From assembly GCA_903908245.1 (NCBI GenBank), contig CAIVRE010000024.1, forward strand, positions 9,676 through 73,675: 64,000 nucleotides of DNA. Direction: 5' to 3'. Position 1 is the stretch's first letter, and every line of letters starts with the position of its first letter. Position numbers: made by a program. Positions 24,001-27,000 of this stretch are shown here, in pieces. The DNA is from Candidatus Omnitrophota bacterium (GTDB lineage Bacteria; Omnitrophota; Gorgyraeia; Zapsychrales; Fredricksoniimonadaceae).

Positions 24001-27000
24001 TCTGGGAAGCGATCGACGCGGCTAGCACCAAGCCGTTCGGTTTCATGCCGTTCTATCCGGGCCTTGGTGTCGGTGGGCATTGTATCCCGGAAGACCCGAT
24101 CTATCTTTACTGGAAAGCCAAACAGCATGGCTATGCGTCGCGGTTCATCAAGCTTTCGGCGGATATCAATGCGTCGATGCCCGGATATGCGGCGGAGCGT
24201 ATCGGTGCGATCCTCAAAGGGCGCGGCAAAACGCTGGCCGGCGCGCGGGTCCTGGTGCTGGGGGTCACGTACAAGAAAGATGTCAAAGACCTGCGCAAAT
24301 CGCCTTCTATCAAACTGATCGAGTCCCTGCGGCGTCATGGGGCTGAGGTTGTTTTTTACGATCCGCTGGTGGCGTATCTGAGCATTGACGGGCTGAAACT
24401 TGACGGGATCGCGCTGACGCCCAAGGCGGTGGCCGTGCAGGATTGCGTGGCTGTTGCGGTCGATCATTCCGGCGTGGATTATTCCATGGTGCTCAAACAG
24501 GCGAAGGCCGTGTTTGACATCAGGAATGTGTACCGCGGAAAGGCGTCACCCAAGATCACAAAATTATAAACATGCGCGTAGGGGCTGGCCCCCGTGCCGG
24601 ACCGGCGAAACTATGTTCATGGAAATCGAATTTCAATTAAGGATATCATCACATGAGCGCGAAAAAAGTTGTTCTGATCTCCGGCGGAGCCGGTTTCCTG
24701 GCCAGTCATATATGCGACCAGCTGATCTCGGGCGGGTATAAGATCATCTGCCTGGATAATTTTATAACCGGCAAGAATGCGAATATCAGTCATCTTCTCA
24801 GGAACAAGGACTTTGTTTTTGTCAGGCAGAATGTTTCGGTGCCTTTTAAGGTCGCCGGGAAGGTTGATTATGTGATGCATTGCGCCTCTCCTGCAAGCCC
24901 GGTGGATTATTACAGTTATCCGATCGAAACGATGCTGGTGGGGTCCAACGGAACTTATCATATGCTCGAGTTGGCCAAGGCTAAAAAAGCGGTTTTCTTG
25001 CTGACCTCGACATCCGAAGTTTATGGTGACCCGAAGGTCCATCCGCAGACGGAAGATTATTGGGGCAATGTGAACCCGATCGGCCCGCGCAGTGTTTATG
25101 ACGAAGCCAAGCGTTATGCCGAGGCCATGACCTTTGCCTATCGCCGGGAATTCAAGGTGGATACGCGGGTGGTGCGTATTTTTAATACGTACGGGCCGCG
25201 GATGAACGTGAATGACGGGCGCGTGGTGCCGAATTTTATTTGTCAGGCGCTCAAAGGCCGGCCGATCACGCTTTACGGTGATGGAAAGCAGACCCGTTCA
25301 TTCTGTTATGTGGCCGATGAGGCCGCGGGGATCCTGAAGCTGCTGTTCTCGCGTGAGCCGGGGCCGGTGAATATCGGGAATCCGCGTGAATTCAACATGA
25401 TCGAATTTGCGAAGCTGGTCCTTGAGTTGACAGGGAGCAAGAGCAAGCTGGTATACAAGCCGCTGCCGGAAGACGATCCGAAGCAGCGCCGGCCGGATAT
25501 CACGCTGGCCCGCACAAAGCTTGGCTGGGAACCGAAGATCGAGCTGCGTGAAGGATTGACGAAGACGATCGCCTGGTTCAGGGAGAATATTTAATATGGT
25601 TGAATATTCTAAAGACGAGCTGGTTGCATTCGAGAACGAGATCGCCGGGATATTCGCCCAGGGCCTGATCAAGGCGCCGGTGCATTTGCGCGCTGGCCGG
25701 GAGGACGCGCTGATCGGTATTTTCCGGAAGTACGACATCGGCCCGGAGGATTATGTTTTTGGTTTTTGGGATTCGCATGAGCTTTGCCTGCTTAAAGGAG
25801 TGCCGCGCGAAGCGGTGAAGCAGGCGATCGTTGACGGGCGCAGTATCGCGCTGTGTTTTCCGGAGCATAAAGTGTATTGTTCCGGGATCGTCGGAAGCCT
25901 GATGGGGGCGGCGACCGGCGCGGCCTGGGCGCTCAAGAAGAAGGGGAAAAAGGGGCGCGCGTTCCTGTTCTGCGGGGACATGTCGTCCGAGACGGGGATC
26001 TTCCATGAAGCGGTCAAGTATGCCGTCAATTTCGACCTTCCGGCGGTGTTCGTGGTCAGCGATAACGGGATCAGCGTGATGACCAACACCCGCGAATCCT
26101 GGGGGTCTGCCGAGCCGTGGTTCAAGGGGACGCGTTTCGAGAGCAAGATCGAGTATTTTCAATACAAGAATGGCTGGCCGCATTCGGGCCTGGGAAAGTT
26201 GATAAAATTCTGATGAAATATTTTGATGAGTTAAAACGCACGATGGAATGGCTCGCGGCGAAGCCGGACACTTTGTTCGTCGGGCAGACGGCCGGGGTGC
26301 CGGGGACTTTCATGTTCCAGACCCTGCGGGATATTCCGAAGGACCGGGCGCTGGAATTTCCGGTCAACGAAAGTTTCCAGATGCAGTTCTCTCTGGGGCT
26401 GGCCCTTGAGGGTTATGTGCCGGTCTCGGTCTATCCCCGCCAGAATTTTCTCTTGCTCGCGACGGGCGATATGTCGAACATGATCGACAAGCTTTCGGCC
26501 ATGAGCGGCGGGGCGGTCAATCCGAAGATCATTATCCGGGTCGCGACGGGGCCGTTCAAGCCGGTCCATCCCGGGCATCAGCATATCGGGAACTTCGCCG
26601 AGGGGTTCCGGAAGATCCTCGACTGGATCGAGGTGGTCGAGGTCAACGAGCCTGAAGAGATATTCCCTGCCTATCAGAACGCTTACGAGCGCAAGGATGG
26701 CCGGTCGACGCTGATCATTGAGGACGGGAACTTTTACAACGAGAAATAAAAAATGCTTAAAGGCGCTTCGCTGCTCATTGTCGGCCATCGGGATTGCGTT
26801 GAGAACGGGCTGTTCGCGGATCTTTCGTCGGCCGGTTTCGATGTGGTCTCGTCCGCGCGTGCGGGGCTCGATGTTCTGAGCCGTCCCGCCGTGGAGGCTT
26901 TCTTCACCCGGAAAAAGCCTGTTTATGTTGTGCTCGCGTCGGTCCGTTCAGGCGGCATCGGGGTGAACCAGGCGCTTCCGGCGGAATTTATTTTCGAGAA

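Follow-up and report, generated by a model that had tools for sequence, protein, structure and literature searches.

Domain content of the alpha and beta proteins

The locus described here lies in a 64,000-nt stretch of DNA from a Candidatus Omnitrophota bacterium (hereafter the window; positions follow its numbering). It contains two adjacent genes on the plus strand, here called alpha and beta, which encode a minimal pair of thiamine diphosphate (ThDP)-binding proteins of the type found in the E1 component of 2-oxo acid dehydrogenases. Reading of the open reading frames (ORFs) confirmed the description in an earlier note on this DNA, namely two genes for 205 and 178 amino acids that share one nucleotide. 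The shared base is the A of TGATG. In the frame of beta, the longest possible ORF opens with GTG at 26117 and overlaps alpha by 97 bases. Since the N-termini of the homologues are conserved as MKYFDELKR, the true start of beta is ATG 26213. A gene for a UDP-glucuronate decarboxylase (UXS) stops at 25594 and alpha starts at 25596; beta ends at 26749 and a short-chain dehydrogenase/reductase (SDR) gene starts at 26753. The four genes are thus tightly coupled.

Against the Pfam profile E1_dh, alpha matched with an E value of 3.4e-15, over profile positions 9-177 of 300 only. TPP_enzyme_C gave a marginal local match on the pair, and E1_dh was the top match. With a profile of the alpha family, pyruvate dehydrogenase (PDH) E1 was found at 8e-25 and branched-chain 2-oxo acid dehydrogenase (BCKDH) E1 at 3e-14, followed by split transketolase at 3.8e-8 and 1-deoxy-D-xylulose-5-phosphate synthase (DXS) at 1.6e-7. 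This profile spans only residues 44-216 of the 365 residues of E1 alpha, whereas E1 proper has a full-length alpha. Alpha is the ThDP diphosphate-binding (PP) domain of the E1-alpha type and stops ~130-150 residues short of the C-terminus of E1 alpha. Its score against the NCBIfam equivalog for PDH E1 alpha was 63.9 bits, the cut-off being 393.85. The ThDP motif of E1, GDG-x(25-30)-N, is present as GD-x27-DNG (G127-D128-M129 ... D156-N157-G158), and GDM...N is kept in 85/86 viral alphas. The other motifs conserved across the family are PxHL, W(R)SH and a C-terminal YPHxGxG tail, which is specific to the alpha family and missing from E1. The only structure model was an AlphaFold model of a fused alpha-beta homologue (P0314). 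In its alpha half, the block means of the predicted local distance difference test (pLDDT) are 83-98 for residues 1-160, and superposition of this half on human E1 alpha gave 1.8 A over 157 columns. The 50 best PDB matches of this half were E1 alpha chains without exception.

The single beta sequence matched Transket_pyr at 8e-4, which is under the gathering score, and solved E1 beta chains at 3e-5. With the beta family profile, PDH E1 beta was detected at 5e-13 to 1e-11, BCKDH E1 at 5e-7 and DXS at 5e-4; transketolase gave no match to this profile. The profile covers residues 6-171 of 329 of E1 beta only. Beta is the pyrimidine-binding (Pyr) domain of the E1-beta type, and the whole C-terminal (Transketolase_C / E2-binding) domain is missing. 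Residue E53, in the motif PVNE, is the Glu that activates the cofactor; the motif aligns with P-x-x-E of E1 beta. In the family alignment, E53, R76, D92, R109 and H124 are invariant.

PDH and BCKDH E1 (PDB 1NI4, 1W85 and 1UM9) are the closest sequences to the pair and share its fold, ThDP motif and activating Glu. Unlike these enzymes, the pair possesses neither the alpha C-terminal loops and His residues used for reductive acylation of lipoyl-E2 nor the E2-docking beta domain. When Pfam was applied to 40 neighbouring or larger ORFs of the window (with ~20 ORFs of 90-340 aa outside the scan), lipoyl, E2 and E3 domains were all absent. These results bear out the other observations of the earlier note: that the proteins comprise only the cofactor core of E1 at about half its size, as Pfam and profile coverage agree, that their neighbours are UXS-like and Fcl-like (matches in Table 1), and that E2 and E3 genes are absent, here among the ORFs scanned. 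The observation of a minimal alpha/beta pair is confirmed. The pair is not one of the E1 dehydrogenases proper, as it lacks three of the features that define them. It retains the parts for ThDP binding and activation and for 2-oxo acid decarboxylation, and has lost those for lipoyl acyl transfer.

In a set of 5.8 billion proteins, alpha had 2958 matches. The best 120 of these share 75% identity or more and have 196-226 aa, in most cases 203-205. These matches support the reality of the genes. A library clustered at 50% contained 59 alpha clusters below 1e-30, in which the full-length members mostly have 195-260 aa, besides fragments and fusions. The best 120 beta matches have 168-195 aa, mostly 178, and are mostly annotated 'hypothetical'. 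Natural alpha-beta fusions of ~380-410 aa occur as well (P0155, P0218, P0226, P0314 and SSM2_198 of cyanophage S-SM2). The two genes are paired in 81/83 Omnitrophota loci, the remaining two being cut, and in 82/82 viral loci. Since fused forms exist and the subunits are always adjacent, alpha and beta form one enzyme. Among other alpha homologues, P0186 is interrupted by an intein, P0153 has a LAGLIDADG domain ahead of it, and P0244 is fused with an APH-type phosphotransferase/kinase domain.

The nearest relatives outside Omnitrophota are on phage contigs, with 45-48% identity. In a scan of IMG/VR, at least 575 viral contigs with the pair were found. Further carriers are the cyanophages S-SM2 and P-TIM68 and the bacterium Massilia sp. 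LXY-6, and a Paceibacterota genome has a similar gene set. Outside Omnitrophota, the family is carried predominantly by phages. In a genome scan with a narrow alignment, all 80 loci returned were from Omnitrophota; the distant bacterial hosts were reached through single look-ups only.

Gene partners in Omnitrophota, phages and Massilia

The gene cluster at 18840-38961 of the window is syntenic, beside lptD, in 80/80 fetched related Omnitrophota genomes (loci L004-L083), in which alpha is 68-92% identical. The gene order is ROK, LptD, sugar dehydrogenase, UXS, alpha, beta, Fcl-like SDR (beside beta in most, not all, loci), a second SDR (SDR3) and a radical S-adenosylmethionine (SAM) enzyme, then further on GHMP kinase, nucleotidyltransferase and DegT, followed by a GT4 glycosyltransferase or an MsbA-like ABC exporter. 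The 458-aa, 404-aa and TPR genes of the cluster were found in close relatives only. The cluster looks like a core, phylum-wide locus for a lipopolysaccharide (LPS)-type envelope glycan. It is not a variable O-antigen-type operon.

Viral neighbours were clustered for 82 loci from L084-L168 (IMG/VR and metagenome phage contigs), and partners within 8 kb of alpha were counted in those 56 loci that were flanked by 5 kb or more in both directions. Beta was present in 56/56, an SDR in 55/56, a His-type DegT protein in 52/56, a heptose-type kinase (HddA-like GHMP or RfaE-domain-I-like PfkB) in 33/56, and a B12-radical-SAM enzyme in 31/56. Also found repeatedly near the pair were RmlC-like epimerases, an RfaE-domain-II-like nucleotidyltransferase and glycosyltransferases of the GT10, GT2, GT4 and GT11 families. 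The earlier note had held that presence of the genes in genomes without a glycan locus would refute its reading; a nucleotide-sugar context was found in 80/80 Omnitrophota and 56/56 well-flanked viral loci.

Two module types were recognized in viruses. In the most compact form of type A (L162, L165-L168), the order is radical SAM, alpha, beta, GHMP kinase, DegT and SDR3-like. Its gene content equals that of the window, with 42-56% identity for SDR3 and ~32-38% for the radical-SAM enzyme. In type B (L090-L093), the order is DegT, RmlB-like 4,6-dehydratase, alpha, beta, SDR, an unknown gene and GT10; the first five of these genes are common to L084 and L089. The DegT protein of the type B locus L084 scored 454 bits, above the cut-off of 423 of the NCBI RfbH equivalog, and the neighbouring RmlB-type 4,6-dehydratase scored 297 bits. 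In type B, the heptose enzymes are replaced and alpha/beta are retained. Both types contain 4-keto formation, 3-deoxygenation, alpha/beta and an SDR, and they differ in the sugar, type A being heptose-type and type B hexose-type, and in the 4-keto route. Some phages carry type A and type B together.

In cyanophage S-SM2, the pair lies with phosphoheptose isomerase (GmhA), a carbohydrate kinase and nucleotidyltransferases. In Massilia sp. LXY-6, the order is HddA-like, Fcl-like, alpha, beta, DegT(His), HddC-like, GmhA, Cj1427-like SDR3, GmhB and GT4.

SDR3 aligns end to end with PDB 6VO6 (Table 1), which we take to be Cj1427 of C. jejuni, in agreement with an identical depositor description. 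The window SDR3 is 57% identical to the Massilia homologue, the phage homologues beside alpha/beta being those of the range given above for type A. SDR3, here called Cj1427-like, probably makes GDP-4-keto-heptose, to judge from this match. Cj1427 is a C4-dehydrogenase that works with an alpha-ketoglutarate/L-2-hydroxyglutarate cycle (PMC10680097). Phage modules contain an L-2-hydroxyglutarate oxidase (490 bits, cut-off 299), which fits this cycle.

The best PDB match of the window DegT protein is GDP-perosamine synthase (5e-69). At the position of the catalytic Lys it has His (SLYAAHIVTTIEGG versus GNKIITTGEGG of GDP-perosamine synthase), and this His is found in 42/42 Omnitrophota orthologues and in 73/84 viral DegT neighbours. 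His at this position marks the 3-dehydratases dependent on pyridoxal or pyridoxamine 5'-phosphate (PLP/PMP), such as ColD and E1/RfbH. By analogy, the window DegT would be a GDP-4-keto-sugar 3-dehydratase that yields a 3-deoxy-4-keto acceptor.

The Fcl-like SDR is 43% identical to the Massilia SDR directly before alpha, and is a candidate for the reduction of the branched product or of a 4-keto intermediate. The HddA-like kinase is 55% identical to the Massilia homologue that lies with GmhA and GmhB. Its homologues occur in 22 viral loci, and in compact ones directly after beta (for example L133-L138, L160 and L162-L168).

The radical-SAM enzyme of the window is 32% identical to its homologue in the phage locus L087. 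It has 411 aa and no Pfam B12-binding match, whereas the phage and Paceibacterota homologues have 486-513 aa and a clear B12-binding domain. The viral gene is directly upstream of alpha in many loci, and the Massilia cluster lacks it. The radical-SAM enzyme is a frequent, non-obligatory partner of alpha/beta. Its Omnitrophota orthologues fall into two identity classes, ~60-85% and ~30-38%.

UXS adjoins alpha in most Omnitrophota loci. No close UXS orthologue was found in the phage or Massilia modules, where identities were 21-29%. The implication of the earlier note that the flanking UXS supplies the keto-sugar did not hold: UXS is a member of the operon outside the conserved alpha/beta module, whose partners are the Cj1427-like SDR3 and the His-type DegT protein. 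UXS was rejected as a conserved keto-sugar supplier, since it is a true UDP-xylose synthase that the phage and Massilia modules lack. The two nucleotide-sugar 6-dehydrogenases upstream, which feed UXS, are no more than operon context. In related genomes, usually only one of the two 6-dehydrogenase kinds has a close match before UXS, and therefore the UXS-feeding step may differ between lineages.

Table 1. Positions of the alpha/beta genes, their neighbours and further genes in the window and in phage loci
Gene or product	Stretch	Position	Strand	Remark
Alpha	Window	25596..26213	+	ATG 25596 to TGA 26211-26213, 205 aa
Beta	Window	26213..26749	+	ATG 26213 to TAA 26749, 178 aa
TuaD/UGDH-like nucleotide-sugar 6-dehydrogenase	Window	21950-23275	+	Sequence match
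UDP-ManNAc/GlcNAc-dehydrogenase-like nucleotide-sugar 6-dehydrogenase	Window	23238-24569	+	Sequence match
UDP-glucuronate decarboxylase (UXS)	Window	24653..25594	+	Human UXS1, E 7e-105
Fcl-like SDR (GDP-sugar epimerase/reductase type)	Window	26753..27661	+	NCBIfam GDP-fucose synthase 333 bits, cut-off 500
SDR3, Cj1427-like GDP-heptose C4-dehydrogenase	Window	29088..30020	+	PDB 6VO6/6VO8, E 1e-115, end-to-end alignment
Radical-SAM enzyme, B12-binding class	Window	30020..31255	+	Nearest solved structure AprD4
HddA-like GHMP kinase (heptose-7-phosphate 1-kinase type)	Window	33180..34178	+	Sequence match
HddC-like sugar-1-phosphate nucleotidyltransferase (GDP-heptose type)	Window	34175..34876	+	Sequence match
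His-type ColD-like DegT-family PLP/PMP enzyme	Window	34873..36042	+	Start as gene call in L001
PMT_2/ArnT-like protein	Window	4-1578		
Radical-SAM gene	Window	1575-2558		Plain
Radical-SAM gene	Window	2530-3558		SPASM domain
DegT-family gene	Window	3500-4783		
Radical-SAM gene	Window	5844-7262		B12-binding domain
O-antigen-ligase-like gene	Window	8941-10152	-	
Radical-SAM gene	Window	39817-41283		B12-binding domain
Carbamoyltransferase	Window	46942-48765		
GT9 heptosyltransferase	Window	49234-50388		
DegT-family gene	Window	50404-51534		
GmhB-like phosphatase	Window	52314-52931		
L-2-hydroxyglutarate oxidase	Phage locus L103	15371-16570		Example
MTA/SAH nucleosidase	Phage locus L147	12776-13264		Example
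Adenine phosphoribosyltransferase	Phage locus L113	12242-12796		Example
u133	Phage locus L120	645-1046		Example
u133	Phage locus L087	4814-5707		C-terminal part
Alpha/beta pair	Synechococcus phage S-SM2 (L169)	149421-150629		

The window contains additional glycan genes beyond the cluster (Table 1), with more glycosyltransferases elsewhere, and this glycan region is unusually rich in radical-SAM genes. In phages, a 5'-methylthioadenosine/S-adenosylhomocysteine (MTA/SAH) nucleosidase and an adenine phosphoribosyltransferase form a gene pair that adjoins the B12-radical-SAM gene. This pair looks like a salvage route for adenine-containing by-products of SAM use. A protein cluster of ~133 aa with a weak DUF7164 match (u133) is present in 30/82 viral loci. 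As some phage modules lie near replication genes, DNA hypermodification was considered; it was set aside, the glycosyltransferases, heptose kinases and nucleoside diphosphate (NDP)-sugar enzymes pointing to a glycan.

A proposed sugar-branching carboligase

We lean, with modest confidence, towards the following function: the pair would be a minimal heteromeric ThDP carboligase of E1 lineage, which adds a C2 unit, probably derived from pyruvate, to C4 of a GDP-3-deoxy-4-keto-heptose. The sugar branching suggested in the earlier note thus fits best, and the interpretation given there is supported in part. The subunits are assumed to assemble as alpha2beta2 like E1, with ThDP held between the PP domain of alpha and the Pyr domain of beta and activated by Glu53 of beta. 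The enzyme would decarboxylate a 2-oxo acid, most likely pyruvate. Because the lipoyl-E2 partner is missing, the hydroxyethylidene-ThDP carbanion is expected to go to a sugar ketone. Its target would be C4, the carbonyl carbon of a nucleotide-activated 3-deoxy-4-keto sugar, and the product a 4-C-acetyl tertiary alcohol. In the window, the acceptor would be GDP-3-deoxy-4-keto-D-glycero-heptose, formed when the Cj1427-like dehydrogenase oxidises C4 of the heptose and the His-type ColD-like DegT enzyme strips the 3-hydroxyl. The branch ketone might then be reduced by the Fcl-like or another SDR, and the radical-SAM enzyme may modify the sugar further. The branched sugar would finally enter the envelope (LPS-like) glycan. 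The sole common denominator of module types A and B is a 3-deoxy-4-keto NDP-sugar, and it is therefore proposed as the acceptor; it is also the acceptor of YerE.

E1-type branching enzymes, called aKADH2 for alpha-keto acid dehydrogenase 2, are AviB1/AviB2 of avilamycin, Pau11/Pau12 of paulomycin, an aldgamycin enzyme and KbDH-alpha/beta of kibdelomycin (PMC12247030, PMC4425429). For KbDH, transfer of the pyruvate C2 unit onto ketone analogues was demonstrated in vitro, and all characterised or proposed members use pyruvate and form C2 branches (PMC12247030). As in AviB1/B2, Pau11/12 and KbDH, the present enzyme has its PP and Pyr domains on two subunits, alpha and beta, both of E1 lineage, lacks E2 and E3, and is encoded among deoxy-keto-sugar genes. 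The gene context also corresponds to that of aKADH2: a Cj1427-like dehydrogenase and a putative His-type 3-dehydratase lie in the operon, and SDR and DegT genes recur in the viral loci at the frequencies given above. The known systems are encoded in antibiotic clusters of actinomycetes and have 6-deoxyhexoses as substrates, in some cases once these have been transferred by a glycosyltransferase, whereas the pair described here lies in GDP-heptose or NDP-hexose modules of an Omnitrophota envelope locus and of phages. The subunits also differ from Pau11 (325 aa) and Pau12 (345 aa) (PMC4425429) in being only 205 and 178 aa long, and so do not have the architecture of the known members. The pair is best filed as a new small variant within the E1/aKADH2 superfamily, as far as its sequence allows.

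YerE installs the acetyl branch of yersiniose on a 3-deoxy-4-keto NDP-sugar, and the same acceptor was proposed for erwiniose, caryophyllose and gastriose (PMC9306805). The logic of the YerE and ErwE pathways is similar to that proposed here, with a 4-keto sugar, PMP/PLP-dependent 3-deoxygenation of the RfbH/E1 type, ThDP-dependent acyl branching at C4, and reduction (PMC9306805, PMC4753412). However, YerE is a single-chain, acetolactate-synthase-like flavoprotein of the opposite domain order (TPP_enzyme_N / M / C, with Pyr before PP), whereas the present enzyme has a PP subunit followed by a Pyr subunit, and there is no kinship at the family level. The substrates differ too, CDP-3,6-dideoxy-4-keto-glucose for YerE and, as proposed, a GDP-heptose here. 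An erwiniose-type sugar made through radical-SAM methylation of a heptose together with the pair was considered and dropped; erwiniose and caryophyllose already have an explanation in YerE-like enzymes that use long 2-oxo acids as donors (PMC9306805).

The pathway that modifies the capsular heptose of C. jejuni (Cj1427 / Cj1430 / Cj1428 and the HS:5 C3-dehydratase; PMC10680097) is matched in the window and the phage modules by close Cj1427 homologues, by Fcl-like enzymes that reduce C4, by RmlC-like epimerases and by a 3-dehydratase type dependent on PLP. In contrast, its products are unbranched, and no ThDP or radical-SAM enzyme is mentioned for it (PMC10680097). No literature linking Cj1427, heptose and thiamine was found.

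Several points weigh against the proposed function. The substrates, regiochemistry and product are read from the neighbouring genes. The pair does not belong to the AviB1/B2 type as described, which the earlier note had invoked; its architecture is different and minimal, as judged from reported subunit lengths. The step from His-for-Lys to a dehydratase is predicted by analogy with ColD and E1 only, and it is not readily seen what an Fcl-type 4-reductase would do once C4 is a tertiary alcohol. In the alphas of Omnitrophota, residues 58-63 read WDSHE[LMI] in place of WRSHYH of the family (the position of YRxHG in E1 alpha), and residues 155-157 read C/S/G-DN in place of EDN. Both substitutions are close to the cofactor and essentially invariant among the Omnitrophota orthologues. 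The beta half of the P0314 model has a mean pLDDT of 67.5, its alignment holding only closely related beta sequences. A gmhA gene was not found in the 64-kb window. Searches of the literature turned up no characterisation of the minimal alpha/beta family, and no 4-C-branched heptose was met in the cited literature, no search having been aimed at one.

Alternative explanations and significance

An enzyme of the same class and in the same NDP-keto-sugar pathway might catalyze another reaction, with another donor, with attack at C3, or with chain extension at the side-chain aldehyde of the heptose. Hydroxypyruvate as donor would leave a hydroxyacetyl branch, a route proposed for miharamycin; a longer 2-oxo acid, of the kind used by ErwE, is another candidate. 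Donor specificity is unreadable from the sequence, and in other ThDP classes branching at C3 and C4 with C2-C8 donors is known (PMC12247030, PMC9306805). The changed active-site motifs of Omnitrophota could mean another substrate, and the frequent B12-radical-SAM neighbour hints at further carbon chemistry. However, the use of pyruvate by all characterised or proposed E1-type branching enzymes argues against another donor, and C4 of a 3-deoxy-4-keto sugar is the site suggested by the conserved combination of a 4-oxidase or 4,6-dehydratase with a 3-dehydratase. We regard this explanation as unlikely, though worth keeping in view.

Considerably less probable is a minimal transketolase- or DXS-like enzyme that acts on sugar phosphates and supplies sedoheptulose-7-phosphate or a higher ketose phosphate to the heptose-type kinase and nucleotidyltransferase. 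In cyanophages, the homologues bear the annotation 'transketolase central region-containing protein' and have GmhA, a heptose kinase and nucleotidyltransferases nearby; weak matches to DXP_synthase_N and transketolase were also seen, and heptose-type kinases accompany the pair in more than half of the well-flanked viral loci (33/56). Nevertheless, the profiles favour E1 alpha and beta by 10-17 orders of magnitude; by this measure the pair is not a transketolase, and orthology to a split transketolase, which the earlier note had named as the finding that would count against it, is not borne out. The SDR (55/56) and the His-type DegT protein (52/56) are tighter partners than the kinases, and type B modules, which have no heptose genes, keep alpha/beta beside RmlB-like and RfbH-like enzymes. 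Least probable of all, and in our view very improbable, is a genuine E1, shortened but working in a dehydrogenase complex for pyruvate, acetoin or branched-chain substrates with E2 and E3 encoded elsewhere, or a plain 2-oxo acid decarboxylase unrelated to sugars. The source annotation, 'pyruvate/acetoin dehydrogenase E1 alpha', and the best matches to PDH E1 subunits speak for it. Against it stand the equivalog score far under its cut-off, the fact that all members lack the C-terminal domain of beta and the C-terminal region of alpha, the phage pairs without E2 or E3, and the invariable position of the pair among nucleotide-sugar genes.

If the pair is a sugar-branching carboligase, the E1 lineage has been cut down to two cofactor domains, with ~380 residues per active site. 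It would be a fourth, much smaller scaffold beside the three known ThDP types that build tertiary-alcohol branched sugars, and as such of interest for biocatalysis. The published C. jejuni enzymes can make all the upstream substrates, and Massilia sp. LXY-6 and the cyanophages S-SM2 and P-TIM68 are cultured carriers. Hundreds of phage genomes carry the gene pair inside 'LPS-like' islands, and there, too, it would gain a testable function.

The wider picture is more tentative, and we hold it as a serious possibility that falls somewhat short of an even chance: a so far unrecognised class of minimal ThDP carboligases disseminated by phages, whose product, a 3-deoxy-4-C-acyl heptose and thus a new kind of C-branched higher sugar, is a core envelope sugar throughout Omnitrophota and is also made by phages during infection. 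In that case, an uncultured phylum is predicted to have an undescribed branched heptose in its envelope. Numerous phages of the sea and of fresh water, the two cyanophages among them, would make 3-deoxy-4-C-acyl heptose, which may serve in a virion glycan, a host-surface glycan, superinfection exclusion or DNA.

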